A program made the position numbers and the translations under genes. The notes under the pieces are model-generated. The model worked only from the letters and a program-made list of their open reading frames with translations. It was not told the DNA's origin and searched no databases. Source: Candidatus Omnitrophota bacterium (lineage in GTDB: Bacteria > Omnitrophota > Gorgyraeia > Gygaellales > Profunditerraquicolaceae). From it: a stretch of 64,000 nt of DNA. Shown one piece after another: positions 13,120 through 46,150 of the stretch. Within the stretch, counting starts at the first letter, position 1. Every line of letters starts with the position of its first letter. The stretch is taken from the NCBI GenBank assembly GCA_028715785.1, contig JAQURC010000006.1:21630-85629 (forward strand), read 5' to 3'.

Positions 13120-13133
13120 AACGGAGGTGTAAG

Positions 13134-27509: not shown

Positions 27510-27543
27510 TTACCACAATATCTTCTCGAGTGTCATTTTTAAT

Positions 27544-27597
27544 TTTACCCAGATTTTACCTCTCTTTGAAGTAGATTTAACCCCTTTATTTTATACT
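27544..27597 (+). promoter_or_regulatory. Pho-box-like promoter: direct repeats TTTACC (27544), TTTACC (27555), TTTGAA (27565), TTTAAC (27576) with 10-11 bp periodicity, then TATACT (27592-27597).
   Basis: Four hexamer repeats in helical phase replace the -35 region, as in PhoB/PhoP-activated promoters. The -10 sits only 6-7 nt before ATG 27604 / TTG 27598, suggesting a possibly leaderless mRNA. Confidence 0.45.
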
Positions 27598-28002: not shown

Positions 28003-28007
28003 ATTGA

Positions 28008-28061
28008 ATTTACACAGATTTTACCTGCGTTTAATTTAGAATCAATATGAAAAATGTAATA
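28008..28061 (+). promoter_or_regulatory. Pho-box-like promoter upstream of the porin gene: TTTACA (28008), TTTACC (28019), TTTAAT (28029), then extended -10 TGTAATAT (28054-28061).
   Basis: The sequence TTTACMCAGATTTTACCT is nearly identical to the box at 27544-27561. 11-bp periodicity. Confidence 0.45.
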
Positions 28062-29394: not shown

Positions 29395-29427
29395 CAAGCG
29401 TAATCAGCGAAAAGAGGAGGAATTAAA

Positions 29428-30246
29428 ATGAAATTAACAAGGTTAGCGGTAATGGGAACGTTGATTTTGGGCCTTGCGTTACCCTGCTACGCAGAGAAGA
29501 TTGTGGTTGAAGGCTCTACTACTGTGCTTCCTATCGCCCAAAAAACAGCTGAAGTTTATATGGACAAAAATCCCGGTGCCAATATTTCTGTGCGCGGCGG
29601 AGGTTCAGGAGTGGGTATTGCATCGTTGTTAGATAAAAATTGCGATATCGCTGATTCTTCCCGTCCGATTAAGGACACAGAGCTTGATAAAGCAGTAACT
29701 AACGGCGTTGATGCTACAGCTAATATAGTTGCCATGGATGGTTTAGCAGTAATTGTCAATCCGGAAAATAGCATTAGTAAATTAAGTAAAAAACAGGTAA
29801 AAGATATTTTTACCGGCACAATTTCTAACTGGTCTCAGTTAGGAGGCAAAGATGAGAAGATTGTAGTTGTATCCCGCGATACTTCAAGCGGGACATTTGA
29901 AGCTTTCCTCACGTTAGTATTGGAAGGCGGTAAAACCCGCTCTGATGCTTTAATGCAGGCATCTAATCAGGCAGTGGCAACTACTGTTGCTGGCACCCCG
30001 GGAGCTATAGGTTATGTGGGGTTAGGTTTTCTTTCATCTTCGGTAAAGGCGATTGAAATAAACGGAGTTATGCCTTCAAGGGATACGGTTGTCTCCGGTA
30101 AATATCCAGTTACCCGCCCGCTTTTTATGTACACCAATGGTAAACCTAAAGGGTTAGTTAAGGAATACATTGATTTTATTTTAAGCGATGAAGGACAGAA
30201 GTTAGTTGAAGAAGAGGGTTTTGTAGGGTTAAAGGAGAAAAAATAA
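29428..30246 (+). CDS. pstS: Phosphate ABC transporter substrate-binding protein PstS.
   Basis: Signal peptide. PBP-like fold motifs (GSTTVLPIAQK, SVRGGGSGVGIASL, VSRDTSSGTFEAF, GAIGYVGLGF) characteristic of the PstS family. Confidence 0.8.
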   Translation: MKLTRLAVMGTLILGLALPCYAEKIVVEGSTTVLPIAQKTAEVYMDKNPGANISVRGGGSGVGIASLLDKNCDIADSSRPIKDTELDKAVTNGVDATANIVAMDGLAVIVNPENSISKLSKKQVKDIFTGTISNWSQLGGKDEKIVVVSRDTSSGTFEAFLTLVLEGGKTRSDALMQASNQAVATTVAGTPGAIGYVGLGFLSSSVKAIEINGVMPSRDTVVSGKYPVTRPLFMYTNGKPKGLVKEYIDFILSDEGQKLVEEEGFVGLKEKK

Positions 30247-30269
30247 AGCGTTTACTCGGTAACCCTAAG

Positions 30270-30300
30270 ATGGCACGGTGGATTTATTCTGCCGTGCCAT
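30270..30300 (+). other. Intercistronic pstS-pstC stem-loop (ATGGCACGG ... CCGTGCCAT, 9-bp perfect stem, 13-nt loop, no U-tract).
   Basis: Perfect inverted repeat between pstS and pstC. It occupies the position taken by a P1 palindrome in operon 2. Candidate mRNA-stabilising or processing hairpin. Confidence 0.5.
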
Positions 30301-30310
30301 TACTCCTATT

Positions 30311-31201
30311 ATGAAGATACTGCGTTTTAAAGAAAGACTATACAAATGGATTTTTACTATCCTTGCCTTTGCTTCGCTTTTTTTCCTGATGGGCATTGTG
30401 TTAGTGCTGGTTAAAGAAAGCCTGCCCATATTCCAGAAAGTAAACTTCTTTAAATTTATCTTTGGCCGCAGCTGGTATCCTACTTATAATCCCGCGGAAT
30501 TCGGAATCTTACCTTTAATTTTAGCTTCTATTTGGGTAACTTTGGGCGCGGTTGTAGTTTGTGTTCCTTTAGGGGTTGGCAGCGCGCTTTATCTAAATGA
30601 ATTAGCCGGGAGGCGCCAAAAAGCCGTACTCAAGCCAATCGTTGAATTGTTAGCCAGCATCCCTTCGGTAGTTTTCGGATTTTTTGGCGTGGTTATACTT
30701 ACGCCTTTATTACAGAAGGTATTTCATTTACCTACAGGGTTAACTGCCTTAAATGCCAGTATTATTTTGGGGGTTATGGCTACTCCTACGGTATGCAGTA
30801 TCGCAGAAGACGCATTAAATTATGTCCCGAATGCGTTTCGCGAGGCTTCATTTGCGGTAGGGGCCACACGCTGGCAAACTTTGACTCAAGTAATAATCCC
30901 GGCAGCGGGTTCAGGAATAGCTACGGCCATAATTTTAGGGATGAGCCGGGCGATCGGCGAAACGATGACTGTGTTAATGGTTGCCGGAGGTTCAGCAGTC
31001 ATACCTCATACATTCTTAGAGCCGGTGCGGCCGATGACCGCGGCGATTGCCGCGGAGATGGGGGAGGCTCCTATGGGCGGCAGCCATTATCACGCGCTTT
31101 TTGCCATCGCGCTCATATTATTTGTGATTACATTTATATTTAATGTTATCGCCGAGATAATCAGCCGGAGTTTTAGGGTAAAGCTGGGGTTAAGCGGATG
31201 A
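30311..31201 (+). CDS. pstC: Phosphate ABC transporter permease PstC. The start is ambiguous: ATG 30311 or GTG 30278 inside the hairpin.
   Basis: Six TM segments and an EAA-like loop. Conserved PstC blocks (WYPTYNPAEFGILP, PSVVFGFFG, ASIILGVMATPTV). Confidence 0.75.
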   Translation: MKILRFKERLYKWIFTILAFASLFFLMGIVLVLVKESLPIFQKVNFFKFIFGRSWYPTYNPAEFGILPLILASIWVTLGAVVVCVPLGVGSALYLNELAGRRQKAVLKPIVELLASIPSVVFGFFGVVILTPLLQKVFHLPTGLTALNASIILGVMATPTVCSIAEDALNYVPNAFREASFAVGATRWQTLTQVIIPAAGSGIATAIILGMSRAIGETMTVLMVAGGSAVIPHTFLEPVRPMTAAIAAEMGEAPMGGSHYHALFAIALILFVITFIFNVIAEIISRSFRVKLGLSG

Positions 31202-32046
31202 AGAAAGAGTTTTCGCAAAATTTGGGATTTTTTGGTTTATTCCTCTGCATGCTTACTACCATTTTGGCCCTGGGCTCAATTATTTATTTTATCGCGGCGC
31301 GTGGATTTAGCGTGTTGAGTTGGAGTTTTCTTACCCAGGTGCCGTATTCGGCGATGACTAAAGGCGGGATTGCGCCGGTTATCGTGGGCACATTTTATAT
31401 TACTTTGGGGGCGATTATGTTTGCTCTTCCGCTGGGGATTGCTTGCGCGGTATATCTTTGCGAGTATTCACCTAAGAGCATCGTGGTAAATATTATTAGA
31501 ATCAGCATCAATAATCTGGCCGGCGTGCCATCGGTTGTCTTTGGCCTATTTGGCTTAGCGGTGTTCGTTAAATTCTTCGGTTTTGGAGTTTCCATTCTCT
31601 CCGGAAGCCTGACTTTAGGGATTTTGGCGCTGCCAATGATAATCTCCTCAGCGCAAGAGGCGCTTTTGGCCGTTCCTCAATCAATCAGGGAAGCTTCATT
31701 ATCTCTGGGGGCGACGAAATGGGGAACTATCAAAAATATCGTCTTACCTACAGCTTTGCCCGGGATCCTTACCGGTGTGATTTTAAGTATTGGCAGGGTG
31801 GCCGGAGAAACTGCACCGATTCTATTTACCGCCGCCGCCTTTTATACGCGCGGCTATCCTAAATCCGTATTTTCCGAAGTCATGGCCCTGCCGTACCATA
31901 TTTACGCGCTGATGACTGAAGGAGCGCATCCGGATAAGCAAAGAGCGATTGCCTATGGTTGCAGCTTGGTGCTTTTATTTTTGGTTTTATTTATTTCAGG
32001 ATTTGCTATATTCTTGCGTCAAAGGCAGAGGAGTTTGTATGGATAA
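31198..32046 (+). CDS. pstA: Phosphate ABC transporter permease PstA.
   Basis: ATGA start/stop overlap with pstC. PstA blocks ([34 protein letters not shown]-loop [12 protein letters not shown]). Confidence 0.8.
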
Positions 32047-32800
32047 CAAGATAAAAATGCAGGCAAAAAACGTGGATTTTTTTTACGGGAAAAACCAGGC
32101 GCTAAAAAATGTCAACCTCAATGTTTATGCCAATAAAGTTACGGCGATGATCGGGCCTTCAGGCTGCGGCAAATCAACATTCATCCGTCTGTTTAACCGG
32201 ATGAATGAATTAGTCGCGCATACAACCCTTAAAGGCAAGATTTTGCTGGATGATTTGGATATTAACAGCCCTCTGGTTGATGCCGTGGATATTCGAAAAA
32301 GGGTGGGGATGGTTTTTCAGAAACCCAATCCTTTTCCTAAAACTATATTTGAAAATATAAGCTACGGTTTAAAAGTGAACGGAATAAAAGATAAAGCGTT
32401 TATTGAGCAGAAGGTTGAAGATTCCTTAAAGAAGGCGGTTATCTGGGCTGAAGTAAAGGACAGGCTTAATGACAGTGCTTTGAAATTATCCGGCGGGCAG
32501 CAACAACGTTTATGTATTGCCCGGTGTTTGGCCGTAGAGACAGAGGTAATACTATTTGATGAGCCATGTGCCAGCCTGGATCCGATATCAACCGCTAAGA
32601 TAGAGGAATTGATTTTGGAGCTTAAAAAAGATTATTCCATTGTGATTGTCACGCATAATATGCAGCAGGCAGCGCGGGTCTCTGATTATACAGGGTTTTT
32701 CCTTTTGGGGGAGTTGATTGAGTTTGGAAAAACGCAGGATATATTTACCGCTCCCAAAGATAAAAAAACCGAGGCTTATATAACCGGTAGGTTTGGTTAA
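32039..32800 (+). CDS. pstB: Phosphate ABC transporter ATPase PstB (canonical).
   Basis: Walker [11 protein letters not shown]-loop [12 protein letters not shown], signature LSGGQQQRL, Walker [13 protein letters not shown]-loop [11 protein letters not shown]. 8-nt overlap with pstA. Start taken as MDNKI (32039), not the track's 31949. Confidence 0.85.
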
Positions 32801-32829
32801 ACAAGGCAACTTATTAGCGAGGTCTGATT

Positions 32830-33507
32830 ATGGAAAGACATTTTGACGTAGAGTTGGCCGATTTAAAAAGTAGTATACTTCAGATGGGTGATTTAGTGGA
32901 GGAAGCGATTATTGATTCGGTGGAGGCGCTTAAACAGTTACGTAAAGATAAAGCTGCCAGGGTGATTGCCGAAGATAAGATTGTTGATGAGTGCGAACTT
33001 AAAATTGATGAAGAGTGTCTGGATCTTTTGGCTTTAAGGCAGCCGATGGCAGTGGACCTGCGTTTTATTACCATGGCGATGAAGATCTCTACTGATTTGG
33101 AAAGAATGGCGGATCTGGCTGTGGATATCTCCCAGCGGGTGTTGGAATTAGCAGATAAGCCGCTGCTTAAGCCGCTGGTAGATATACCAAAATTAACCCT
33201 GCTTGCGCAAAAGATGACTCGTGATGCCATAAGTTCATTTGTTAATAAAGACGCGGAATTAGCCAGGATAGTAATATCGAGCGATCGAGAAGCCGATAAC
33301 CTGCGTGATCTAGTTCAACAGGAGCTGCTCAATGATTATATCTCCAAAAATAAAACAACTATTCCACGCGCTATTCCTTTACTTTTGATTGCCCGCCATC
33401 TTGAGCGTATCTGCGATCACGCCACTAATATCGCCGAAGATGTAATCTATATGGTTGAGGCAAAGGTAGTAAAACACCACCTGGAAAAATTAGATGAAAA
33501 CAGTTGA
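32830..33507 (+). CDS. phoU: Phosphate uptake regulator PhoU.
   Basis: Two PhoU repeats with conserved ERxADxxTNIAE-type motifs (DLERMADLAVDIS; LERICDHATNIAEDVIY). Confidence 0.8.
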   Translation: MERHFDVELADLKSSILQMGDLVEEAIIDSVEALKQLRKDKAARVIAEDKIVDECELKIDEECLDLLALRQPMAVDLRFITMAMKISTDLERMADLAVDISQRVLELADKPLLKPLVDIPKLTLLAQKMTRDAISSFVNKDAELARIVISSDREADNLRDLVQQELLNDYISKNKTTIPRAIPLLLIARHLERICDHATNIAEDVIYMVEAKVVKHHLEKLDENS

Positions 33508-33569
33508 TTTAAGATGGTTGCTGCAATATTATAATGTCGCGTTGTATTTTAAAAGGAGATACTTTTAGC

Positions 33570-34001
33570 ATGGATAAGAAAAAAGTTTTATTTGTTTGCG
33601 TGCATAACTCGGCTCGTTCGCAAATGGCCGAAGCGTTTTTAAAACAGATGGCTGGTGATAGATTTGAGGTGGAGAGCGCGGGCCTGGAGCCTGGCAAGTT
33701 AAATCCCACAGTTGTCGAGGTGATGAAAGAGGTAGGCATCGATATTTCACAGAACAAGACTAAGAGTGTGTTTGATTTCTACAAACAGGGTAAACGATAT
33801 GATTATGTTGTGACTGTGTGCGCTGAATCGCAAGCGGAAAAGTGTCCTATTTTTCCCGGGACAGCAGTCACACAAAGAATGCATTGGGGTTTTGATGACC
33901 CCTCGAGTTTTCAGGGGGGCCAGGATGAGAGAATGAAGAAAATCCGCCAGGTTAGAGATAAAATTAAACGCCGGATTATGGAATGGATTAATGAAAGATA
34001 G
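33570..34001 (+). CDS. arsC: Low-molecular-weight protein-tyrosine-phosphatase / arsenate reductase (ArsC, LMWP family).
   Basis: Catalytic P-loop CVHNSARSQMAE (CX5R(S/T)) at the N-terminus, plus a downstream Cys pair (VTVCAES, EKCPIF) as in thioredoxin-coupled ArsC. 144 aa. Confidence 0.6.
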   Translation: MDKKKVLFVCVHNSARSQMAEAFLKQMAGDRFEVESAGLEPGKLNPTVVEVMKEVGIDISQNKTKSVFDFYKQGKRYDYVVTVCAESQAEKCPIFPGTAVTQRMHWGFDDPSSFQGGQDERMKKIRQVRDKIKRRIMEWINER

Positions 34002-34875
34002 CCGGTGCAAAGTATTTTGCTTGCCTGTTATTATCCGCCCCCGTTTACTATCAGTTATTTTAATGGTATTAGCTTTATCCTTGAATACAGTTGTTCAGGG
34101 TTCCTTTGCCCAAGGTGCCGATTCTACTTATCGCAAAGGTATAGAATACGCTTCCGAAGGAAGATTCCCGGAGGCTGCGGATTGGTTTCAAGATAACCTA
34201 AAAAACAATAAATCAGATTCTACTTCACTTAGTTCCCTTATCGTTATTAAGGATTTAAATGACGGTAAAATTACCGATGTGTATGCCAAGTCTTTTTTTA
34301 CAGGATTGAATTTTCTACAAAACGGTAATATAGATGATGGGCTTAAGGAGCTCCAGAAGGCTATAGAATTTAATCCAGGCTATCCTAAGCCGTATAATGT
34401 CATTGGTGTGGTTTATGCTTCAGTTGGGGATAAATCCAAAGCCATTGATTATTTCCAAAAAGCCATAGAAATAAATCCTCAATATAGCCAGGCATGTTTT
34501 AACCTAGCCGCGTTGTATCAATCATCAGCCCAGCCGGAAGATGCCCTTAAGTATTATGAGAAAGTAATATCTTTGGATCCAAATTCTTTCGAAGCAATAA
34601 TTAATATGGCCGCAATTTATGCTTTACTTGGGAAATACTCCGAAGCGATTAGGTATTATCAAAATGCCATCGGGTTGGATGGGAATAACCCCGAACTGTA
34701 TTATAACCTCGCCCTATCTTATTTTATGTCTGATCAATTTAGAAAGTTTAAAGAAAATCTTCTTAAATCCCAAGAATTATATCAAGAAAAAGGTGATCGC
34801 CAGGGGCTTGAGAAAGTAGCAGTATATATGAATAAGATGAAAGAAATTGAAAGCAAGGCAAGGCATACCAAGTAA
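33991..34875 (+). CDS. Secreted TPR-repeat protein.
   Basis: Signal peptide (LSVILMVLALSLNTVVQGSFAQ). Several 34-aa TPR-like repeats (AIEYFQKAIEINPQYSQACFNLAALYQ...). Confidence 0.6.
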   Translation: MKDSRCKVFCLPVIIRPRLLSVILMVLALSLNTVVQGSFAQGADSTYRKGIEYASEGRFPEAADWFQDNLKNNKSDSTSLSSLIVIKDLNDGKITDVYAKSFFTGLNFLQNGNIDDGLKELQKAIEFNPGYPKPYNVIGVVYASVGDKSKAIDYFQKAIEINPQYSQACFNLAALYQSSAQPEDALKYYEKVISLDPNSFEAIINMAAIYALLGKYSEAIRYYQNAIGLDGNNPELYYNLALSYFMSDQFRKFKENLLKSQELYQEKGDRQGLEKVAVYMNKMKEIESKARHTK

Positions 34876-35747: not shown

Positions 35748-38700
35748 ATGTTTAGAATGTTACGTAGAATCTTAGCCTGCCTGTTATGTTTTACGCTCCT
35801 CTTTGAACAGAGTGGTTTTGCCCAGTCTGTAGCGGAAGGCAATTTCTTAGGTTTTTTTGCCCCTCCTCACCTAAGCGGCGCCTTTAATCCCGCGCGTCTT
35901 CGCTATGTTGCATACGCCGAAAACATCAATAAATTTAAATTTTTATTTGACAAGGGTGATTTAAGAGATACTGACGATTTTACTTTAAAGGATTCAATCA
36001 GCGGACCTTTAAGTTATTTTTTGGTAGGGATAACTTTACCGAGCGAAAGTTTCTGGGTAAATCTGCGGCCGGATTCCCCGGCTAATGTTATCGATGATTT
36101 ACTGGCTGAAACTGATGTGGGCAAGATTTTCTTAGAAGCCGACTTGCAGTTAAAGAAGGAGTTTGCTCGTTACACTATGTCTGCCCAGCAGGGAAAAGAA
36201 TATCGGCTGCAAATCAGGAAAAAAGCCGAAGAGCTTTTTGGCTGCCTGGCGTTAGCTCCTTCAACTTTTACCCGCGTGTGGATTGACCCGGGTGAGATAA
36301 TCATCAGAGAAACTCAAAACAGCGCTTATATATATAAAGCAAATTTGAATGTGCTTACGGAGGAAGATTATTTTGGAAATTCCTTGGCCTCTGAAGATAA
36401 ACGGGTACAGGCTTTTAACGAATACGCGTCAGAACTTATAAAAAATTTAATTTTACCCAAGCTTATCAAGGAGGTGAATACCGGGAAAGAATTTGCCGCT
36501 TTAAGACAGGTTTATTATTCTTTTATTTTAGCTCAGTGGTTTAAAAATAGATTCTTGCAGCGTAACGGTCCAGCGCCCCGGTTTATCGATAGTAAAATTT
36601 TATCTGGTCTTAATTCTAAACATCCTTGGTCCAAGGAGGATTATTTTGCGCAATACCAGGAATCAGTACAAAGGGGGGACTACCGTTTTGATGAAAGAGA
36701 ACCTTTAGTTTTTGGAGAAATGGTAACTAGTTATTCTTGCGGCGGGGTAACTCTGGCATTAAAAATTCCGCCTTTTGCTTCTGCGGGGATGATCACTAGT
36801 GATGGGAGTATGACTTTAATAGGCGGAAGAGAAATAGAAGGTATTTTATCCCCTGACCGGGTTCTTGACCTAGGGTTAATCAGTGCAACTGCAAAATTTG
36901 ATCTAAAGGATCCGCTGGGTAATGTTATTGTTGAATCCGCAGCAAGTTCAGTTCGTAATGCTGCGTCAGCCGCTCCTGTTTCTGCTGCCAGCAGCGCGCA
37001 GGCGATGAATGACGGTGGAAGCCAGGTATTGAAAAAAGCAAAAGAAAAACTAAGTGTGTTAGAATTAAATAATCCGGCTTATTTAATTGCCGCGGAGCTA
37101 TTGCTTGGCGCTTTATTTATTTTTGGATTTTTTGTTGACGCCGGGAGTATGTTTTATAACTATGGGGTATTTGGACACTCCGTAATAGAAAGGTTTGTCG
37201 GTTATCCCTTGCCGAGTTTGAATGAGTATTTCCAGATTATCTCGCTTTCTTTTATTGCCTTTAACGCCTTGTTTGGATTATCAAAATCACCCGCGGTTAG
37301 GGCAAAAACCGGGCTTGCCCCCATTTTTTCAATACTTTCGGGATTTACGCTTTTTGGGATAGTGCCGCTGGCTATCAGCCTTACGGGTTTAGATAAATAT
37401 TTCAACTTGCAACTGGCGGTTTCTCCTTACGCGATGGAGGCCTTCGCGCTTTTGGGCGCGGCAGTTATAGGTCTATTGCCGGGGATGAATACTAAAAAGG
37501 AGAGCCCGGTTGATTTCCCTGAGAGTAGTCCGGATATAGAAAATAATACGGGTTGGGTGGAGCCTTCATGGGACGCTGTAGTAGAGGCGGCTTTGAATGA
37601 AGTAAACAAAAGGGCCGGTATTTCCGGCCTTACCGATGGAGCCTGTCTTGAGTTCCTGGAACAAACGCGCAAGCTCAGAAACCTCCTGCCTTTTGAATCG
37701 CATATCGTTACCGACAAAAGAGTCGCCTATTATCAGATTTACGACGAAGCTTTACAGTCTCTGTGCAAGAAACTCCAGGAAATTATGGATAGGCTGCGTG
37801 TAAGTACAGATGAGTTGGAACGAAAACGCCTGAATATCTACGCTTCTGAAATATTGGTTACTGCCGAATATTTTAATGAATGCCTGCGCGCTCTTAATGA
37901 GGTAGAGAATATCCCTCTTTCATCCGGTGACCGGCTTGACCGCAGCACCCCTTTTCGTAAAACAATCTCTTTTATTGTCGGGCATGCCTTTGGGTTTAAT
38001 AAGACATTTAACTATTCCAAGAAGGAGCTTATGAAGCAGCTAAAGGAGAAAATCATTCCGTTAGGCAATAGCTTGGATAACCTTTATTCGACAAAAGCCG
38101 ATATCGATAAGCAGGTTATTAAAAAGTGGGGGGAATGGATCCAAAACTGTTATGAAGGCAAAAGAAAAAGGCTGGGCGCCAGAAAAGGCTGGGTTTTTTG
38201 GAAAGAGATGTTCGGCCCGCTTGTCAGCCTGGTCTTGGTGGCTTCTGCACTTCCGATTGGCGGGAACATTGGTTTTCTAGAGTTCTTGTCCGCCCCTGAC
38301 TTTAGCGCGGGCGCTTTATGGAACGCAAAACCATTGGTAGGGCTTTCGCTTATTTTTTTGGGTTGGTATGTGTTACTGTTTCCCGGCAGAGGTAAAGCCG
38401 ACCAGACTTATAAAGAACACAATAAGACAATTGAGAAGTTAAAGCGGCAATTTAAAGACACTTTTTTCCTTATTGAGGGGGATTCAAGAAACAAGGCATT
38501 ACAATTTGCTTATGAGCAGTCTCTTGAAGCGGCTTGGAAAGAACTTTCTAGCGCCAGCGCAAGCGCGCAGGCAGTCATTGTTGTCACGGAACAGCCCAAA
38601 ATAATTCAGGATTTTCTTGAAAATTTGCGCGGTACGATATTACGAAAAGATGTCGAATTATTGGCTATTTCCGCCGAAAACAAAGGCAGTGCCGCGGCGT

Positions 38701-40094
38701 TTATCGAAGGTATGTTAGAAGCGCGGAAGTTTAAGAGAAGTATACTGTTGTTGGGAAGAGAGCAGGATATTGCGCGGTCATTGCAGCTTTTGCCGCTTCC
38801 GGCGTTTGAGCCGCTGGGGCGGCCATTGACCCCTTTGGAATTATCGCTGATTAATGGTTATCAGCTAACCCAGGCTTTAAAACAAAAAGGCCGTTGGGGT
38901 ACAGCGGTAGAAGTTACGCATAAATGCTTGATTCGTGATCTGAATTCATCATTGGAAGAAGTGCCTGACATGGAATTAACAACGGCATTGGTCGATATAG
39001 AGCAAATGGCCAGGCAGGATCTGGCATTAATTGTTGAAAATAACGGTAATGGCGGAAACGGTAAGCCAAAACCGTATGGGTGGATCCGCAAGATATTTAA
39101 ACATTTGAGTCTAGAAGACGTGAGAAATAAGACCGGGCCAAGGCATTTGCCCGCGTTTTCTGTTGACTGGCGCAATAAAGAAAAGCGGCAAATGCGCGTA
39201 TTCAGCGGAGAGATATTGGTAAGTATTCAGGATAAAGAACGCAATGAGTCTTTTATGTCGTTTCTTTCGCAAATGAAGGATTATATGGCTGAGCATTCCA
39301 AAGATAGTTTTCAACCCAATCTTACTACCCATTTTCTCGTTCCTCTGGTTATGCTTACTAATAACGAAGGAGCAGGGATTCACCGTTTTCGGGAGGGCCT
39401 GAATTTAAAAAATAAAGAGGATATTTTTTTAAAGGGGCTCTTCAATTTGTTTTGGCCTGAAGATGATACAGGGTATCACAGTAAATTAGCAGCTCTTCAA
39501 ATAGAAGCTCTTATACCCCATCAAAGTTCATTCTATACGCGTTTAGACGGCACTACGGATGCGGATGCGGTATTGAAACAACAATTAGGCGGCCTTTATA
39601 CTGAACCGCCTAACAAAGAAATTTTAACTTTACTGTACAGGGCTGCCCAAAACGAGGATACAGCCTCAATGCAACATGAATTAGACGGCGGGCATTCATC
39701 ATCCAATGTAATATCCTCCAGCCCGCAGAGAGTTGTAATTCCATCATTGGGAGCCGGCGTCGGCGGCATAGGTTTTTCTTCAATGAAAGTTGTCCTGAAC
39801 TACGATGATCTGTTGAAAATAGATGGGGAGTGGGGTCAAATTGAAAAGATGTTGGAGTCCGGAAACCTTCCCTCGATACCTTCGGTCACAAATTATGTGG
39901 AAACGGCGGTAAAAAATACTGATTCCGGTATGCAGTTATATAAAGCGATGGCCTGCGTTGCCGGTATCCTCAAACTGGAAGAAGAATTGGTAATCCCGGC
40001 GCAGATGGAAATTAAAAGGCTGTTGCTGGTGCTGGAAGAACATCTAAACCGGCAGGGCGGCCAAATGAATTCTAAGAATCTTGCTTTAAGGTAA
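35748..40094 (+). CDS. Giant hypothetical membrane protein (1448 aa) with signal peptide and two internal clusters of TM helices.
   Basis: Signal peptide MFRMLRRILACLLCFTLLFEQSGFAQS. Hydrophobic cluster ~aa 440-590 (four helices) and ~aa 820-880 (two helices). No recognisable catalytic motifs. Downstream of the Pho box at 34934. Confidence 0.6.
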   Translation: MFRMLRRILACLLCFTLLFEQSGFAQSVAEGNFLGFFAPPHLSGAFNPARLRYVAYAENINKFKFLFDKGDLRDTDDFTLKDSISGPLSYFLVGITLPSESFWVNLRPDSPANVIDDLLAETDVGKIFLEADLQLKKEFARYTMSAQQGKEYRLQIRKKAEELFGCLALAPSTFTRVWIDPGEIIIRETQNSAYIYKANLNVLTEEDYFGNSLASEDKRVQAFNEYASELIKNLILPKLIKEVNTGKEFAALRQVYYSFILAQWFKNRFLQRNGPAPRFIDSKILSGLNSKHPWSKEDYFAQYQESVQRGDYRFDEREPLVFGEMVTSYSCGGVTLALKIPPFASAGMITSDGSMTLIGGREIEGILSPDRVLDLGLISATAKFDLKDPLGNVIVESAASSVRNAASAAPVSAASSAQAMNDGGSQVLKKAKEKLSVLELNNPAYLIAAELLLGALFIFGFFVDAGSMFYNYGVFGHSVIERFVGYPLPSLNEYFQIISLSFIAFNALFGLSKSPAVRAKTGLAPIFSILSGFTLFGIVPLAISLTGLDKYFNLQLAVSPYAMEAFALLGAAVIGLLPGMNTKKESPVDFPESSPDIENNTGWVEPSWDAVVEAALNEVNKRAGISGLTDGACLEFLEQTRKLRNLLPFESHIVTDKRVAYYQIYDEALQSLCKKLQEIMDRLRVSTDELERKRLNIYASEILVTAEYFNECLRALNEVENIPLSSGDRLDRSTPFRKTISFIVGHAFGFNKTFNYSKKELMKQLKEKIIPLGNSLDNLYSTKADIDKQVIKKWGEWIQNCYEGKRKRLGARKGWVFWKEMFGPLVSLVLVASALPIGGNIGFLEFLSAPDFSAGALWNAKPLVGLSLIFLGWYVLLFPGRGKADQTYKEHNKTIEKLKRQFKDTFFLIEGDSRNKALQFAYEQSLEAAWKELSSASASAQAVIVVTEQPKIIQDFLENLRGTILRKDVELLAISAENKGSAAAFIEGMLEARKFKRSILLLGREQDIARSLQLLPLPAFEPLGRPLTPLELSLINGYQLTQALKQKGRWGTAVEVTHKCLIRDLNSSLEEVPDMELTTALVDIEQMARQDLALIVENNGNGGNGKPKPYGWIRKIFKHLSLEDVRNKTGPRHLPAFSVDWRNKEKRQMRVFSGEILVSIQDKERNESFMSFLSQMKDYMAEHSKDSFQPNLTTHFLVPLVMLTNNEGAGIHRFREGLNLKNKEDIFLKGLFNLFWPEDDTGYHSKLAALQIEALIPHQSSFYTRLDGTTDADAVLKQQLGGLYTEPPNKEILTLLYRAAQNEDTASMQHELDGGHSSSNVISSSPQRVVIPSLGAGVGGIGFSSMKVVLNYDDLLKIDGEWGQIEKMLESGNLPSIPSVTNYVETAVKNTDSGMQLYKAMACVAGILKLEEELVIPAQMEIKRLLLVLEEHLNRQGGQMNSKNLALR

Positions 40095-40385: not shown

Positions 40386-40483
40386 CTAAATCCCCGATTA
40401 ATTATTTACTTACTCATTAACATATCATATAATAATTCAGATTGTTTTACCCGCAATAATCTTTCCAAAGAAAGGTTAAAGAA

Positions 40484-41140
40484 ATGAATAAAACAGGCTT
40501 GGTGGCTATTGGTTTGATACTATTGTTATTAGCTAATGCCTATGCTTATGACGACGGTGATTTTCAGGTATGGAACACGGATGTCGAGGAAATCCAGCTT
40601 AAGAAAGATTTAAAGCTGGCCTTTGAGCAGGAGTTTCGCTGGGGGGATAACGCCAGTGAATTTTACTACCAGCATTATGATGTCGGATTAACCTATAACC
40701 TAAATAAATATTGGAGTGCCGGCGGTGGATACCGGCATGTGCTTAATAAAAGCAAAGATAAATTTTTGGTAGAAAACGAGCCTTATGTTACGGCCACTTT
40801 TGCCAGCCAATTTGCCGGATTTAAATATGATGACCGCAGCCGGCTGGAATATAACCATTTTGATTATAAAGATGACACCTGGCGCTACCGCAATAAGCTT
40901 ACGGTAAAGGCCCCCTGGAAATTTACTAAATTAGAGATCCAGCCGTTTGCTGCCGATGAGATATTCATTCTTTTTGATGATGGCCAGAGGTTAAGTGAAA
41001 ACAGGACGACTGCGGGTTTGGCGATGAATATCGCCAAAAACCTAAAAGGTGAAGTTTATTATATGTTCAGAACCGTAAAAAGCGGACTGAAGTGGACGGA
41101 TACGAATGTATTGGGAACAAAACTAAAGTTAGTGTTTTAA
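40484..41140 (+). CDS. Small outer-membrane beta-barrel-type protein (DUF2490-like), hypothetical.
   Basis: Signal peptide ending ANAYA. Alternating amphipathic strands rich in Y/W/G. C-terminal LKLVF (terminal Phe). Confidence 0.45.
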   Translation: MNKTGLVAIGLILLLLANAYAYDDGDFQVWNTDVEEIQLKKDLKLAFEQEFRWGDNASEFYYQHYDVGLTYNLNKYWSAGGGYRHVLNKSKDKFLVENEPYVTATFASQFAGFKYDDRSRLEYNHFDYKDDTWRYRNKLTVKAPWKFTKLEIQPFAADEIFILFDDGQRLSENRTTAGLAMNIAKNLKGEVYYMFRTVKSGLKWTDTNVLGTKLKLVF

Positions 41141-41142
41141 AT

Positions 41143-41186
41143 TTTACTTAGATTTAACATGGATTTAGAGTAAATACAAGTATAAT
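41143..41186 (+). promoter_or_regulatory. Pho-box-like promoter for operon 2: TTTACT (41143), TTTAAC (41153), TTTAGA (41164), AATACA (~41173), then perfect -10 TATAAT (41181-41186).
   Basis: Hexamer direct repeats at 10-11 bp phase abutting a consensus -10, ~35 nt before pstS2 ATG 41221. Confidence 0.45.
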
Positions 41187-41220: not shown

Positions 41221-42075
41221 ATGTTTAAGAAAGGTTTGTTTATTTTAGCTTTGCTTATCTTTACGGTTCCGGCGTTTGCCGGAAAAGATAAAAATTCCAT
41301 CCAGATTAAAGGCTCGGATACTATGGTCAATCTCGGACAGGCCTGGGCAGAGAAATATATGGAAAAAAATCCCGGGGATTTTGTGGCGGTAACCGGCGGC
41401 GGCTCCGGGACAGGATTGTCCAGTTTAATCAGCGGAACCTGCGATATCGCGATGAGCTCAAGAAATATCAAGGATAAAGAGATTTCTTTGGCCGAACAAA
41501 AAGGGATTGATCCTTTTGAGATAAAAGTTGCTTTGGATGGTTTGGCGGTAGTCGTCAATCCGGCTAATCCGGTGAGCAAGCTCACAGTGGAACAGCTGGC
41601 CGGAATCTTTACCGGCAGTATCACTAACTGGAAAGAAGTGGGGGGAAAAGACGGGAAGATCGTCATTCTTTCGCGCGAAGTAAATTCCGGGACCCACGTT
41701 TATTTTAAAGAGCACGTATTAAGGAAAGGCAATGCCAACGGCAGAGAGGAATTTGCTCCCGGAGCCTTGTTATTATCTTCTTCGCAGGCGATTGCCGATG
41801 AAGTTGCCGGTAATTCCGCAACGATAGGTTATTATGGGATGGGTTATATCTCAAGCAAGCAAAAGCCCGTTGCTATTGCTAAAGACGCTAAATCCGAATA
41901 CGTTAATCCCAGTATCGAGAATGTTCTAAGCGGTAAATACCCCATATCCAGGCCGCTTTTTCTATATACTAATGGAGAGCCGCAAGGACTGATTAGGAAA
42001 TTCGTTGATTATGCCCTTTCTAAAGAAGGTCAGGATATTGTAGTCAAGACGGACTTTGTTCCCATTAAAAAATAA
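41221..42075 (+). CDS. pstS: Phosphate-binding protein PstS (second copy).
   Basis: Signal peptide. Conserved PstS blocks (GSDTMVNLGQAWAEKY, VTGGGSGTGLSSL, LSREVNSGTHVYF, IGYYGMGY). Confidence 0.8.
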   Translation: MFKKGLFILALLIFTVPAFAGKDKNSIQIKGSDTMVNLGQAWAEKYMEKNPGDFVAVTGGGSGTGLSSLISGTCDIAMSSRNIKDKEISLAEQKGIDPFEIKVALDGLAVVVNPANPVSKLTVEQLAGIFTGSITNWKEVGGKDGKIVILSREVNSGTHVYFKEHVLRKGNANGREEFAPGALLLSSSQAIADEVAGNSATIGYYGMGYISSKQKPVAIAKDAKSEYVNPSIENVLSGKYPISRPLFLYTNGEPQGLIRKFVDYALSKEGQDIVVKTDFVPIKK

Positions 42076-42095
42076 TGCGAAAGTTATTAACAGTT

Positions 42096-42121
42096 GTAGG
42101 GGAGGTTTAAACCTCCCCTAC
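42096..42121. repeat. Palindromic hairpin family P1, copy C (GTAGGGGAGG-TTTAAA-CCTCCCCTAC), intercistronic between pstS2 and pstC2.
   Basis: Perfect 26-nt palindrome centred on GTTTAAAC. Confidence 0.75.
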
Positions 42122-42141
42122 ATTAAGGGTATCAGGCGGCT

Positions 42142-43005
42142 ATGCGGAAAATCAAGGAGTTTGTTATTGAGAAGCTAATCCTGGTCTGCGGCTTAGCTTC
42201 CATATTTTTTGTCATCCTAATTTTTTTATTTCTAACCAAAGAAGGCCTGTCCGTATTTAAATCGGTTAGTCCTTTTAATTTTCTTTTTGGCAAAAGCTGG
42301 TATCCCATCTCTGAACCGCCGCAATTAGGGATCTTACCGCTAATATTGGGTTCATTATTAGTGACCTTGGGAGCGGCAATTATTTCTATCCCTATAGGCG
42401 TAGCCTGCGCAGTTTATATCGCCGAAATCGCGCCATTAAAAATTAAAGAAATTCTAAAAGCCGGAATTGAATTATTGGCGGCTATACCCAGCGTGGTCTT
42501 AGGTTTTATTGGTATGGTAACTTTAGTCCCCTGGGTAAAGACTACTTTTCATCTGCCTACGGGTTTAACTGCCTTGTCCGGTTCGATAATTTTAGCTTTT
42601 ATGGCTATGCCGACGATAGTTTCGATTGCCGAGGACGCGCTTTATTCTGTTCCCAAAAGTTATAAAGAAGGCGCCTTTGCTTTAGGGGCTACGCATTGGC
42701 AGACAATTTACCGGGTTTTGCTTCCGGCTGCTTCTTCAGGGATAGTCGCGGCGGTAATGCTTGGTATCGGCCGGGTAATCGGCGAGACCATGGCGGTAAT
42801 GATGATTACCGGCAACGCCGCGGTCATTCCGCAGAGCATTCTTGTGCCGGTGCGCACTTTGACCGCCACCATTGCCGCGGAAATGGGCGAGGCGGTTGTG
42901 GGCAGCGAACATTATTTTGCGCTTTTTGCTATCGGCATAGTTTTATTCATCATAAGTTTTATCATCAATGTTACCGCGGACCTATTCTTGCACAAGAGGC
43001 ATTAA
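42142..43005 (+). CDS. pstC: Phosphate ABC permease PstC (second copy).
   Basis: Paralog of the 30311 gene (WYPISEPPQLGILP, PSVVLGFIG, ILAFMAMPTIVSIAEDAL). Confidence 0.8.
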   Translation: MRKIKEFVIEKLILVCGLASIFFVILIFLFLTKEGLSVFKSVSPFNFLFGKSWYPISEPPQLGILPLILGSLLVTLGAAIISIPIGVACAVYIAEIAPLKIKEILKAGIELLAAIPSVVLGFIGMVTLVPWVKTTFHLPTGLTALSGSIILAFMAMPTIVSIAEDALYSVPKSYKEGAFALGATHWQTIYRVLLPAASSGIVAAVMLGIGRVIGETMAVMMITGNAAVIPQSILVPVRTLTATIAAEMGEAVVGSEHYFALFAIGIVLFIISFIINVTADLFLHKRH

Positions 43006-43853
43006 TGCGTAATACGCAAAGATCACAAAAGATCGCCTTCTTTTTTCTTTTCCTGGCTACGCTTTTAATTGTTGTGCCGGTTGGCTTGATTGTTGTGATT
43101 ATTATCCAGAAAGGCCTGCCGGCGATTAACTGGCAATTTTTAGCGGATATTCCGCGCCAGGGGATGCGCGCCGGAGGGATTTTCCCGGCGATCATCGGGA
43201 CAATTTATCTTGTTTTGGGCGCGATAATCTTTGCCCTGCCCATAGGCCTGCTGGCGGCAATTTATTTAAGTGAATACGCAAAGGACAATATTCTTAACCG
43301 CATAATCAAGCTGGCAATCGTGAATCTCTCCGGTGTGCCTTCGGTTGTCTATGGTTTATTTGGTTTGGCGCTTTTTGTGGTTTTCTTAAAATTTGGCGCA
43401 TCGATTTTATCCGGTTCGCTCACTTTAGGGATAATGATCCTGCCGATAATCATTACTACCTCCCGGGAGGCTTTGGAAAGCGTGCCGCATTCGTTTCGCG
43501 AGGTAAGCTTGTCTTTGGGGGCAAGTAAATGGCAAACCATAAGGCATATAGTTTTACCCAATGCCGTACCCGGAATTCTAACCGGGACCATTCTGGGATT
43601 AGGCCGCGCAGCGGGAGAAACCGCCCCGATTCTTTTTACTGTGGCGGCTTTTTATCTGCCGCAGCTGCCTAAATCTATTTTTGATCAGGCGATGGCGCTG
43701 CCGTATCACTTGTATGTAATTTCAACGCAGGTGCCTAATGTGGATGAAAAAATACGTTATGGCACGGCTTTAGTCCTGTTATCTTTGGTTTTGTTTATGA
43801 ATTTAGTGGCCATAATCATCCGTTATAATTTCAGAAAGAAGAAGAAATGGTAA
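43005..43853 (+). CDS. pstA: Phosphate ABC permease PstA (second copy). Start MRNTQRSQK at 43005 (TAATG overlap); the track's 42696 extension is an out-of-context frame.
   Basis: Paralog of the 31198 gene (GGIFPAIIGTIYLVLGA, NLSGVPSVVYGLFG, REVSLSLGASKW). Confidence 0.75.
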   Translation: MRNTQRSQKIAFFFLFLATLLIVVPVGLIVVIIIQKGLPAINWQFLADIPRQGMRAGGIFPAIIGTIYLVLGAIIFALPIGLLAAIYLSEYAKDNILNRIIKLAIVNLSGVPSVVYGLFGLALFVVFLKFGASILSGSLTLGIMILPIIITTSREALESVPHSFREVSLSLGASKWQTIRHIVLPNAVPGILTGTILGLGRAAGETAPILFTVAAFYLPQLPKSIFDQAMALPYHLYVISTQVPNVDEKIRYGTALVLLSLVLFMNLVAIIIRYNFRKKKKW

Positions 43854-44593
43854 AACTTAACGCCAGGAACCTGAATATCTGGTTTGGCCAGATCCACGCT
43901 TTAAAAAGCGTGAACATCGAGGTAGAGGCCAATGAGATTTTAAGCGTAATCGGCCCGTCCAACAGCGGAAAGACCAGTTTCCTGCGCATGCTTAATCGTC
44001 TGAATGACCTGTATCCGGGTTTTAAAATGAGCGGCAGCTTAGAGTTTGATCAAGAGGATATCAGAAAAATAGATATTGAGGTTTTGCGCAAAAAAGTAGG
44101 CATGGTTTTTGCTTTACCCCTGCCCCTGCCTTTATCGATTTTTGAAAATGTGGCCTATGGGGTCAGGATGCACGGAGAAAATAACCGCGGCCGGATCTCC
44201 GGGATTGTCGAGCGTTCCTTAAAGCAAGCCTATCTCTGGGATGAGGTCAAGGACAGGTTGGATGTCTCGGCTTTTAAATTATCCGGCGGACAGCAGCAGC
44301 GTCTTTGCATTGCCCGGACCCTGGCGGTTGAGCCGGAGGTCATCTTATTCGATGAGCCTTGTTCCGGGCTTGACCCGATTTCAACCGCCAAAGTTGAAGA
44401 GGCAATGTTAAAGCTGAAAAAAGACTATACAATAGTTTTAGTAACTAACAATGTAAAGCAGGCGGCCAGGGTGGGGGACCGCACGGCTTTTTTTCTGTCA
44501 GGAGAGCTGATAGAATTGGACAAAACAGAAAAGATGTTTACGGCGCCCAGCGACCAGCGTACCGATGGCTATATTAGAGGAAAGTTTGGATAA
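43847..44593 (+). CDS. pstB: PstB-like ATPase with degenerate catalytic loops (Q-loop Gln to Ala, H-loop His to Asn); signature motif intact.
   Basis: Walker [11 protein letters not shown]-loop region [13 protein letters not shown] (canonical [10 protein letters not shown]). Signature LSGGQQQRL. Walker [13 protein letters not shown]-loop [12 protein letters not shown] (canonical VTHNMQQ). Confidence 0.75.
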
Positions 44594-45348
44594 TGGCGGA
44601 TATTTTAGTAAATAATTTAAATTTATGGTACGCTGATTTCCAGGCGCTGATAGGCGTAAAAGCGCATTTTACCCAAAAGCAGATTACCGCTATGATTGGG
44701 CCATCAGGGTGCGGTAAGTCGACTTTACTGCGGGTGTTTAACCGGATGAATGACCTTATCGAAGGGGTGCGCGTAGAAGGGGAAGTAATCATTGACGCCG
44801 AAAATATAATTTCCGATAAAACGGATTTAGTGGGCTTGCGTAAAAAAGTAGGCATGGTCTTTCAGCGGCCCAACCCCTTCCCGTTATCTATTTATGAGAA
44901 TATTGTTTTTGGCCAGAAGGTGCATGCCGAAGGCTTAACTAAGCTAAAACTCAATGAGATAGTTGAGGATAGCTTAAAATCCGTTCTTTTGTGGGATGAA
45001 CTTAAAGATAAGCTGAATAAATCCGCGCTGAGTTTGTCGCTTGAACAGAAGCAGCGGCTTTGCATTGCCAGGCTGATCGCGGTTAAGCCTGAGATTTTGC
45101 TGATGGATGAGCCCTGTTCGACCCTTGACCCGCAGGCAACCAGCCGTATCGAAGAATTAATGCGTGAACTTAAGAATAACTATACTATAATAATTGTTAC
45201 GCACAATATGCAGCAGGCAGCGCGCGTTTCGGACCAAACAGGTTTTATGCTTTTAGGCGAATTGGTTGAATTTGGTAAAACAGAGGATATTTTTACCCGG
45301 CCAAAAGATAAGCGGACAGAAGATTATATTACCGGCCGATACGGTTAG
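44593..45348 (+). CDS. pstB: PstB ATPase with consensus catalytic loops but a degenerate ABC signature (LSLEQKQRL instead of LSGGQQQRL).
   Basis: Walker [11 protein letters not shown]-loop [12 protein letters not shown], Walker [13 protein letters not shown]-loop [11 protein letters not shown]. Signature [14 protein letters not shown]. Confidence 0.8.
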
Positions 45349-45383
45349 ACACCCCGCGCTTATAAGGTATTGCGCGGGTATGG
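45349..45383. repeat. REP-like hairpin family R2 (ACACCCCGCGC-TTATAAGGTATT-GCGCGGGTAT), copy 1.
   Basis: ~10-bp GC-rich stem with a conserved 12-nt loop, starting 1 nt after the pstB stop. Further copies at 47899, 51208 (inverted) and 51287 (inverted). Confidence 0.7.
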
Positions 45384-45404
45384 CCTTGTGGCCAAGGAGG
45401 ATAA

Positions 45405-46073
45405 ATGCTAAGGCATTTAGATGAAGAATTAAAGGAACTGCACAAAGATATTTTGAAGATGGCGGTATTTGCCCAGGAGTCGATATTTAAATCTATCGAG
45501 TCGCTAAAGAACCGCGATAAAAACCTGGCTCAGGATGTAATCGATACTGATAATAAGATCGATGAACTGGAGTTGGCAATCGATGAAAAATGCATTGATC
45601 TTATTGCCCGTTATCAGCCGATGGCAGGAGATTTAAGGTATATTACCACCGGGATGAAGATAAATACGGAGCTGGAGCGGATTGCCGACATAGCATTAGA
45701 TATCTCGCAAAAATCATTAGCATTGATGGATAAGCCTTTACTTAAACCATTAGTGGATATTCCCAAGCTTTCCCAGGTGGCGCAGAATATGGTTAAGGAT
45801 GCCATTGACGCATTTGTCAAAAAGGATGCCCAGTTGGCCCGGCAGGTGGTTTTAGCGGATTGCGAAGCCGACAGGTTGCGTAACCTGGTTCAGGATGAGC
45901 TGGTTAATGAATATCTGGCGCGCGATCCTAAAACCGCGGAGCGGGCGGTGGCATTATTGCTTATTGCCCGGTATTTGGAGCGTATCTGCGACCACACTAC
46001 CAATATTGCCGAAGACGTAATTTATATGGTCGAGGCAAAAGTAGTCAAGCACCATCCCGAAGAATTGAAATAA
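45405..46073 (+). CDS. phoU: PhoU (second copy).
   Basis: Paralog of the 32830 gene (ELERIADIALDIS; LERICDHTTNIAEDVIY). Confidence 0.8.
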   Translation: MLRHLDEELKELHKDILKMAVFAQESIFKSIESLKNRDKNLAQDVIDTDNKIDELELAIDEKCIDLIARYQPMAGDLRYITTGMKINTELERIADIALDISQKSLALMDKPLLKPLVDIPKLSQVAQNMVKDAIDAFVKKDAQLARQVVLADCEADRLRNLVQDELVNEYLARDPKTAERAVALLLIARYLERICDHTTNIAEDVIYMVEAKVVKHHPEELK

Positions 46074-46082
46074 TTTCTAGTT

Positions 46083-46150
46083 GGGGGGACGTCCTCTTAG
46101 GGGACACCCTTTAAAAAGGGTGTCCCTTTTTGGCACGTCCCTTTTAATTT
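46083..46150. terminator. Nested double hairpin family T1, copy 2 (reverse-complement orientation of 23035-23091), followed by TTTTAATTT.
   Basis: GGGACGTCC-TCTTA-[GGGGACACCC-TTTAAAAA-GGGTGTCCC]-TTTTTGGCACGTCCC; 10 nt after the phoU2 stop. Confidence 0.55.

Follow-up and report, generated by a model that had tools for sequence, protein, structure and literature searches.

Organisation of the locus

The 64,000-nucleotide stretch analysed here, referred to as the window, comes from the genome of a Candidatus Omnitrophota bacterium (contig JAQURC010000006.1, positions 21,630 to 85,629). It carries two operons for Pst, the phosphate ATP-binding cassette (ABC) transporter, and the second of them, pst2, encodes two PstB nucleotide-binding domain (NBD) proteins in tandem. 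Operon 2 has the order pstS-pstC-pstA-pstB2a-pstB2b-phoU (41221-46073), and NCBIfam models match all of its genes. These genes and the single pstB of operon 1 are as follows.

41221-42075, + strand: pstS2, phosphate-binding protein (TIGR02136, 274 bits)
42142-43005, + strand: pstC2, permease (TIGR02138, 294.5 bits)
43002-43853, + strand: pstA2, permease (TIGR00974, 301.8 bits)
43847-44593, + strand: pstB2a (type a), NBD of 248 amino acids (best model TIGR00972, 340.3 bits)
44593-45348, + strand: pstB2b (type b), NBD of 251 amino acids (best model TIGR00972, 373.3 bits)
45405-46073, + strand: phoU2 (TIGR02135, 201.7 bits)
32039-32800, + strand: pstB1, the canonical lone PstB of operon 1 (all motifs consensus)

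The stop codon of pstA2 overlaps with the start codon of pstB2a (ATGGTAA), and the same applies to the stop codon of pstB2a and the start codon of pstB2b (TAATG). Both overlaps would fit an arrangement typical of translational coupling. TIGR00972 is by far the top-scoring model for both tandem proteins (hereafter 2a and 2b). With respect to its curated cutoff of 343.2 bits, 2b lies above and 2a about 3 bits under the threshold. Because 2a misses this cutoff, the two proteins carry different NCBI names, "phosphate ABC transporter ATP-binding protein" for 2a and the corresponding name ending in "PstB" for 2b. NCBIfam holds no dedicated model for either type. In operon 1, phoB-phoR and a Porin_5 gene precede pstS-pstC-pstA-pstB-phoU (28108-33507; pst part 29428-33507), and the operon holds one pstB only, in which every motif is consensus.

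Complementary motif changes in the tandem PstB proteins

The proteins 2a, 2b and PstB1 were aligned with Escherichia coli PstB, for which cryo-electron microscopy structures are available (PDB 9k3x, 9k3s). The alignment is gap-free near the motifs, and 2b shares 56% identity with the E. coli protein (pairwise count over alignment columns). The positions that matter for the following are:

43952-43975, + strand: Walker A of 2a, GPSNSGKT (read from the sequence)
44111-44113, + strand: Q-loop position of 2a, Ala89 instead of Gln (MVFALP; Q98 in E. coli; from the alignment)
44279-44293, + strand: signature of 2a, LSGGQ, consensus (read from the sequence)
44447-44449, + strand: H-loop position of 2a, Asn201 instead of His (VTNN; H210 in E. 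coli; from the alignment)
45034-45048, + strand: signature of 2b, LSLEQ (read from the sequence), with Glu151 corresponding to E. coli G157 and CFTR G551

In 2a, Walker B is unaltered (D169/E170) and the aromatic residue of the A-loop is also present. The P-loop fits the general pattern GxxxxGK[ST], yet it shows a class-specific change in which Gly4 is replaced by Asn and Cys5 by Ser. In 2b, Glu151 replaces the second Gly of LSGGQ, while Walker A, Walker B (DEP), the Q-loop (Q91) and the H-loop (VTHN, H204) are all consensus. The non-consensus residues are hence confined to one composite site of a putative 2a/2b dimer, and the other composite site is fully consensus.

An earlier note on this DNA, made from the sequence alone, had described a single canonical pstB in operon 1 and two tandem paralogs in operon 2, of which 2a has lost the Q-loop Gln and the H-loop His but kept LSGGQ and Walker A/B, and 2b is consensus except for LSLEQ. 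The open reading frames (ORFs) and the alignment with E. coli PstB bear out this description, with the refinement that the P-loop of 2a is altered as well. That the substitutions fall on catalytic positions of the Q-loop, the H-loop and the signature likewise holds in the alignment, and motif mapping agrees with the predicted pairing, in which the degenerate elements would meet in one composite site and the consensus elements in the other.

Conservation, selection and fold

We compared these positions in 67 full-length PstB representatives of 50%-identity clusters. The canonical residue is found at the Q-loop Gln in 59, at the fourth signature position (Gly) in 64 and at the H-loop His in 60 of the 67 sequences, and the exceptions are almost only of the combination Ala/Ser, Gly, Asn or the combination Gln, Glu/Asp, His, i.e. 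those of 2a and 2b. Among the 120 orthologs of 2a listed in Omnitrophota (79-100% identity), all 120 have LSGGQ together with VTNN, and MVFALP was read in 117, the other three having been missed by the regular expression. The 120 orthologs of 2b listed in the same phylum have LSLEQ and consensus Walker A, Q-loop and H-loop. The three positions are near-invariant in PstB as a whole, and the 2a and 2b combinations lie far beyond chance, given that all listed orthologs, and carriers across phyla, share the respective residues.

The ratio of nonsynonymous to synonymous substitution rates (dN/dS) is 0.055 for pstB2a and 0.051 for pstB2b, compared to 0.031 for pstC and pstA and 0.017 for phoU, and both pstB genes are thus under purifying selection. 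These values derive from three close relatives with unsaturated synonymous divergence (dS 0.3-0.55). Species-level loci were set aside for this purpose, as their dS of 1.2-4 is saturated and some values were incomputable. An AlphaFold2 model of 2a reached a predicted local distance difference test score (pLDDT) of 93.9 and a predicted template modelling score of 0.90, and it superimposes on E. coli PstB (9k3x_C) with a TM-score of 0.95 and a root-mean-square deviation of 1.2 Å. The protein is therewith predicted to fold as an intact NBD of the PstB type. The monomer prediction for 2b has a pLDDT of 50, owing to a shallow alignment of 34 sequences, all at least 80% identical, and is uninformative as to the fold.

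Distribution and pairing of the two types

To survey type-a genes, one genome per GTDB species was scanned with a DNA pattern for GGQ-x19-DEP-x27-VTNN. Apart from the PstB spacing, it constrains only the His-to-Asn change, so that the Q-loop was left unselected. It detected type a in at least 120 species genomes from about 20 phylum-level groups, and carriers exist beyond the 120 listed loci. They belong to Omnitrophota, Planctomycetota, Verrucomicrobiota, Lentisphaerota, Acidobacteriota, Aminicenantes, Elusimicrobiota, Ignavibacteriota, Gemmatimonadota, Spirochaetota and Hydrogenedentota as well as WOR-1, WOR-3, Margulis-, Firestone-, Desantis- and Wallbacteria. The one cultured carrier among the listed matches is the myxobacterium Sorangium cellulosum So0157-2 (L082; NC_021658.1, about 10418000-10419400). 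An exhaustive search among representative proteins also brought up more distant members of either type. Paired degenerate PstB proteins, which the earlier note had proposed to look for in relatives, are thus common there and well beyond. The locus L073 shows a PstB-a/PstB-b/PhoU cluster of bacterial type on a 2.6-kb contig that was binned as Candidatus Micrarchaeia (DPANN), most likely through misbinning and not because an archaeon carries the pair.

A type-b gene lies directly downstream of the type-a gene in 104 of 109 cases among the matches listed, the 109 being those type-a genes for which the locus includes 500 nt or more of downstream sequence. The gene order at the listed pairs is always pstS-C-A-Ba-Bb, and phoU is next after the pair in most loci that show downstream genes. 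In the listed matches, the downstream partner always has the Q-loop Gln, has the H-loop His in 93 of 95 readable cases and carries GPSGCGKS in nearly all. The fourth signature position of the listed type-b proteins is Glu in 90%, Asp in 6% and Tyr in 3%, and it is never Gly. Two loci (L025 and L027) have a type-a gene with no type-b gene in view, their downstream sequence being just 684 and 954 nt long.

The reverse scan was run on metagenome contigs with a type-b pattern consisting of Glu-Gln at signature positions 4-5 plus VTHN. It returned at least 120 loci, of which 20 of those listed have too little upstream sequence. A type-a gene lies directly upstream of 99 among the remaining 100 informative type-b genes listed. 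The last of the 100 loci (L242; 9108-9887, - strand, and 12695-13480, + strand) is rearranged, and a type-a-like PstB is found elsewhere in it. Its type-b gene is oriented divergently from a pstS-C-A-B-phoU operon, and the type-a-like PstB of this operon shows MVFARP and an SGLD D-loop, with LVPHS and not LVTNN in the H-loop region. The pst-operon context is common to about 200 related loci among the matches listed.

In addition, a profile search with diverse type-a proteins, unselected on motifs, yielded 120 further clusters. Of these, 119 have Ala in the Q-loop and 113 have Asn in the H-loop, while the remainder were not read by the regular expression. The matches of this search are metagenome-assembled genomes (MAGs) only.

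Evolutionary origin and class-specific residues

A neighbour-joining tree that also took in canonical PstB proteins was calculated with the four motif regions masked. All 115 type-a and all 91 type-b proteins each formed one exclusive clade. Because each type is monophyletic with the motif columns masked, the tree points to a single old duplication that would have been followed by co-inheritance of a and b. The mirror-tree correlation between the two types (r = 0.755) shows co-inheritance only.

Type a has lost canonical residues in six columns, namely A33G/S, Walker A Cys-to-Ser, Q-loop Gln-to-Ala, Phe-to-Leu five residues after the Q-loop Gln, L186A/S/T and H-loop His-to-Asn. Moreover, Gly4 of its Walker A is often Asn, and its D-loop reads SGLD vs SALD in canonical PstB. 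Type b has lost canonical residues in two columns (V134L and signature Gly-to-Glu). Four of these eight columns belong to the motifs of a single composite site (type-a Walker A Cys, Gln and His; type-b signature Gly), and the other four are adjacent to the Q-loop or located elsewhere. The 115 full-length type-a proteins among the listed matches have Ala (94%) or Ser (5%) in the Q-loop. Their signature is S-G-G-Q at positions 2-5 in 100%, with Leu (93%) or Met (6%) at position 1. The Walker A Lys, the following Ser/Thr and the Walker B Asp are present in 100%, and the A-loop aromatic residue in 85%. The type-b signatures differ between lineages: L[S/T]LEQ in Omnitrophota and Planctomycetota, L[S/T]GEQ in Aminicenantes, L[S/T/A]PEQ in Acidobacteriota, LPLDQ in Verrucomicrobiota and Lentisphaerota, LPLY[Q/H] in Spirochaetota and LSAEK in WOR-3.

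Seven other PstB-like representatives (P0322, P0303, P0389, P0273, P0293, P0318 and P0356) show other non-consensus motif combinations, for instance GPPRGGKS/LTRGQ/EE/Asn and the signatures LTADA, LTADE, LSIGQ and LSPGQ. These representatives fall outside the type-a and type-b clades, and further degenerate PstB lineages may exist.

Proposed mechanism and alternative readings

We consider it likely that PstB-a and PstB-b form an obligate heterodimer that drives the Pst2 transporter and has one consensus ATP site (site I) and one non-canonical site (site II) of probably slow or no hydrolysis. A consensus site is impossible in either homodimer, since a2 would lack Gln and His at both sites and b2 would have Glu in both signatures. 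As neither homodimer is consensus, as the two genes are paired in both directions of the search and as they overlap, the obligate heterodimer is the best reading.

The motor of Pst2 would accordingly comprise two old PstB paralogs, each docked on one permease. In E. coli, one PstB is bound to PstA and the other PstB to PstC (PMC12976172). In the usual head-to-tail arrangement of the NBDs, site I would be formed by Walker A, Walker B, Q91 and H204 of 2b and by LSGGQ of 2a; it would be fully consensus and would hydrolyse ATP. Site II would consist of the altered P-loop, A89 and N201 of 2a and of LSLEQ of 2b, which would put Glu151 at the point usually occupied by a backbone amide in contact with the gamma-phosphate. 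Since 2a keeps the A-loop aromatic residue, the Lys and Thr of Walker A and the Asp of Walker B, site II would most likely still bind nucleotide. Hydrolysis in this site would probably be slow or absent; the site could serve as a hinge or act allosterically, and each transport cycle would then consume about one ATP. We infer the physical heterodimer, the nucleotide occupancy of site II, its non-hydrolysis and the ATP stoichiometry.

Related cases are known from other transporters. In CFTR, G551E and G551D affect the same signature position as Glu151, and the acidic residue repels the gamma-phosphate and blocks productive ATP-driven closure (PMC4178940). The deviant site of Pdr5 has LNVEQ and holds ATP throughout the cycle without hydrolysis (PMC8421411; PMC7756269). 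For the histidine permease, work cited in PMC3971661 is quoted to the effect that one intact site is enough.

Several observations weigh against this picture. Loss of the Walker B Glu has been called the hallmark of degenerate sites (PMC7544095), whereas this catalytic residue is present in 100% of the 115 type-a proteins. A His-to-Asn exchange retains activity in the consensus site of MRP1 (PMC7756269). Signature position 4 of type b is acidic in about 96% of the matches listed and is thus not randomly degenerate; this conservation could reflect a positive chemical role. Lone PstB genes with VTNN but consensus Walker A, Q-loop and LSGGQ also occur, each with phoU directly after it:

L093, 972-1844: lone VTNN PstB of a Methylomonas MAG
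L117, 602-1402: lone VTNN PstB of a Spirochaeta MAG

The His-to-Asn change alone hence seems compatible with a homodimeric PstB. Furthermore, L111 (6191-6943), from a MAG of Candidatus Endomicrobiellum meruensis (Endomicrobia), has a type-a gene with no type-b gene within 6 kb downstream; its partner is either located elsewhere or was lost in termite-gut symbionts. The next gene in L111 resembles lpxB, as judged by eye from the translation. Lastly, Walker A position 4 of type a covaries with signature position 3 of type b, though unspecifically: the mutual information of 0.66 bits exceeds that of permutations, yet it ranks 10th among the type-b columns. It is mostly phylogenetic signal and was not used as evidence.

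The earlier note had gone on to predict one dead ATP site. The alteration of Q-loop, H-loop and signature in site II supports this in part, but "dead" is not proven and goes further than the evidence, as the catalytic Glu is fully retained and His-to-Asn is tolerated elsewhere.

A rival reading, which we regard as rather unlikely, holds that site II is remodelled and functional instead of inert, with the signature Glu or Asp standing in for Gln and His at Mg2+ or water and with hydrolysis being slow or regulated. In a variant of it, site II prefers ADP or senses inorganic phosphate (Pi) and so couples transport to the energy or phosphate state of the cell and perhaps to PhoU signalling. The complete conservation of the catalytic Glu, of the Walker A Lys and Thr and of the Walker B Asp in type a, the A-loop aromatic residue in most of its members and the acidic signature position of nearly all type-b proteins speak for such a site. 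The same applies to the location of phoU directly after the pair in most loci with visible downstream genes and to the apparent product (Pi) inhibition of the E. coli PstCAB ATPase (PMC12976172). In Pdr5, moreover, turning the deviant site into a consensus site abolished activity, so that such sites are functional (PMC7756269). On the other hand, an acidic residue at this position repels ATP's gamma-phosphate in CFTR (PMC4178940), and a signature carboxylate that takes part in catalysis is without precedent. Only tentatively may site II be seen not as simply dead but as a purpose-built regulatory nucleotide or phosphate sensor tuning Pi uptake and PhoU/PhoR signalling to the energy or phosphate status of the cell. 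Equally doubtful is the joint proposal that, with such a sensor, PstB-a/PstB-b represents a natural, widespread type I ABC importer family running on a single catalytic ATP site.

It is quite improbable that alternative homodimers (a2 or b2) are formed, or that 2b alone powers transport with 2a in an accessory or regulatory role. Such a division of labour would resemble Enterococcus faecalis, which requires PstB2 but can do without PstB1 if PstB2 is present in excess (PMC12096839), and the type-a gene of L111 without adjacent partner would also agree with it. However, the Firmicute pair is consensus in both proteins (PMC12096839) and so a different case, while b2 would carry the G551E-like Glu in both of its sites and a2 would be without Gln and His in both. 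The LSGGQ of type a, conserved in 100%, is only sensible if it completes a catalytic site in trans, and the pairing is near-perfect in both directions, with overlapping genes. Finally, recently duplicated and decaying copies with substitutions as neutral damage, an alternative raised by the earlier note and favoured only by the non-consensus residues themselves and by the score of 2a just under the PstB cutoff (340.3 vs 343.2 bits), can be ruled out with near certainty by the dN/dS of about 0.05 for both genes, the same residues fixed in hundreds of orthologs from about 20 phylum-level groups, the monophyly of each type and the confident model of 2a.

The heterodimer with one consensus site would be of interest beyond this locus. 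The number of ATP molecules that an importer uses per cycle and the role of its second site have so far been addressed by engineered mutant heterodimers, e.g. of the histidine permease. Here, nature would supply a conserved one-consensus-site version of a well-studied importer, the solved homodimeric counterpart being E. coli PstSCAB, and the canonical homodimeric Pst system beside pst2 in the same genome offers a built-in control. The pattern of degeneracy is distinctive in that Q-loop, H-loop and signature (Gly-to-Glu) are affected and the catalytic Glu is kept, which would put a natural G551E-like residue into a working transporter. Genome annotation lumps both types under "PstB", and it would be easy to make a dedicated family model for each.

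Regulation and genomic neighbourhood

The following features were found around the two operons.

40484-41140, + strand: DUF2490 gene, with which the pst2 transcription unit probably begins (Pfam PF10677, 2.9e-34)
41141-41158, + strand: candidate Pho box upstream of pstS2, ATTTTAC-N4-ATTTAAC with 11-bp period (pattern match)
27542-27559, 28007-28024 and 41141-41158, + strand, and 34254-34271, - strand: Pho-box-like repeats
40405-40433: promoter-like site (weak evidence)
46120-46136: terminator-like hairpin (weak evidence)

The pattern ATTT[T/A]AC-N4-ATTT[T/A]AC with its 11-bp period has four matches in the window vs 0.32 expected by chance. Three of the repeats are located just upstream of genes of phosphate-regulon type, namely of a stand-alone receiver ORF next to phoR, of the porin/pst1 operon and of pstS2, respectively, and the one upstream of pstS2 is conserved in L121, L123, L124 and several other Omnitrophota. 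Because Pho-box-like repeats occur at both operons, both Pst systems are probably regulated by PhoB. Neither the promoter scan nor the terminator scan yielded more hits than shuffled sequence did.

The DUF2490 gene lies directly upstream of pstS2, and its protein has a signal-peptide-like N-terminus. A DUF2490 gene is also found upstream of pstS in L121 and L124. Operon 1 begins instead with the Porin_5 gene (28108-29394), and each of the two Pst systems may possess an outer-membrane channel of its own. Directly after phoU1, a gene for a low-molecular-weight phosphotyrosine phosphatase/ArsC-type protein (33534-34001; PF01451) is consistent with operon 1 linking the handling of phosphate to that of arsenate. 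The ORF at 35748-40094 encodes 1448 amino acids with several hydrophobic stretches and no Pfam match. Its counterpart adjoins the pst2 locus in a relative (L123, 1-961; 1459 amino acids, no Pfam match).

The window (1-64000) contains 49 ORFs that reach 150 amino acids or more. Of these, 47 are on the + strand, and the two on the - strand overlap with + strand ORFs. The GC skew is positive in every 2-kb bin. Based on this strand bias and the positive skew, the window is probably one long co-directional leading-strand stretch.

Comparison with known systems

Canonical homodimeric PstB, as in E. coli PstSCAB and in operon 1, shares the fold, the operon context and 48-57% identity with the proteins described here, but it is encoded by a single gene and its two ATP sites are identical and consensus. 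The tandem pstB1/pstB2 genes of Firmicutes (also pstBA/pstBB; E. faecalis, Bacillus subtilis) resemble pst2 as adjacent paralogs in a pst-phoU operon. The Firmicute paralogs are about 60% identical and functionally non-equivalent (PMC12096839), and in B. subtilis they were modelled as a PstBA/PstBB heterodimer (PMC11466899). In E. faecalis, both proteins have consensus motifs and PstB2 alone can suffice (PMC12096839), whereas the motifs of 2a and 2b are non-consensus and complementary, so that neither could replace the other. According to the authors of PMC12096839, tandem pstB paralogs had not been studied earlier.

The earlier note had compared the pair to CFTR and TAP1/2. Asymmetric exporters and channels of this kind (CFTR, TAP1/2, TM287/288, MRP1, BmrCD, PatAB) are likewise left with one consensus site. 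They combine deviations in Walker A/B, Q- or H-loop of one NBD with a deviant signature in the other, and this asymmetry is evolutionarily conserved (PMC7756269, PMC3971661). The comparison therefore stands with respect to the complementary motif deviations, but not with respect to the loss of the Walker B Glu, which is the hallmark of those systems and does not occur here. In addition, their transmembrane domains have a different fold, and the loss of the Q-loop Gln seen here is an unusual pattern. Yeast Pdr5 and the PDR family share the Glu at the same fourth signature position (LNVEQ and LSLEQ) and the replacement of the H-loop His. Pdr5 differs in also lacking the Lys of Walker A and the Glu of Walker B, and it is a full-size eukaryotic exporter of the ABCG type, not an importer that depends on a binding protein.

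Reviews present degenerate sites as a trait of ABC exporters (PMC7756269, PMC3971661). In the open-access literature searched, the only importers with a degenerate site that we found were RbsA and NupO of B. subtilis, whose NBDs are fused (PMC11466899). These share with pst2 the combination of import and one degenerate ATP site. In contrast to pst2, their NBDs are part of one polypeptide, the Walker A Lys is lost (in NupO also the Walker B acids), and they are sugar and nucleoside importers filed under type II (PMC11466899). A description of a Pst system with a degenerate site was not found in the open-access literature, and its absence there is not proof. The asymmetric NBD heterodimer is a kind of ATPase that is already known; here it would occur in an importer of type I, and its pattern of degeneracy differs.

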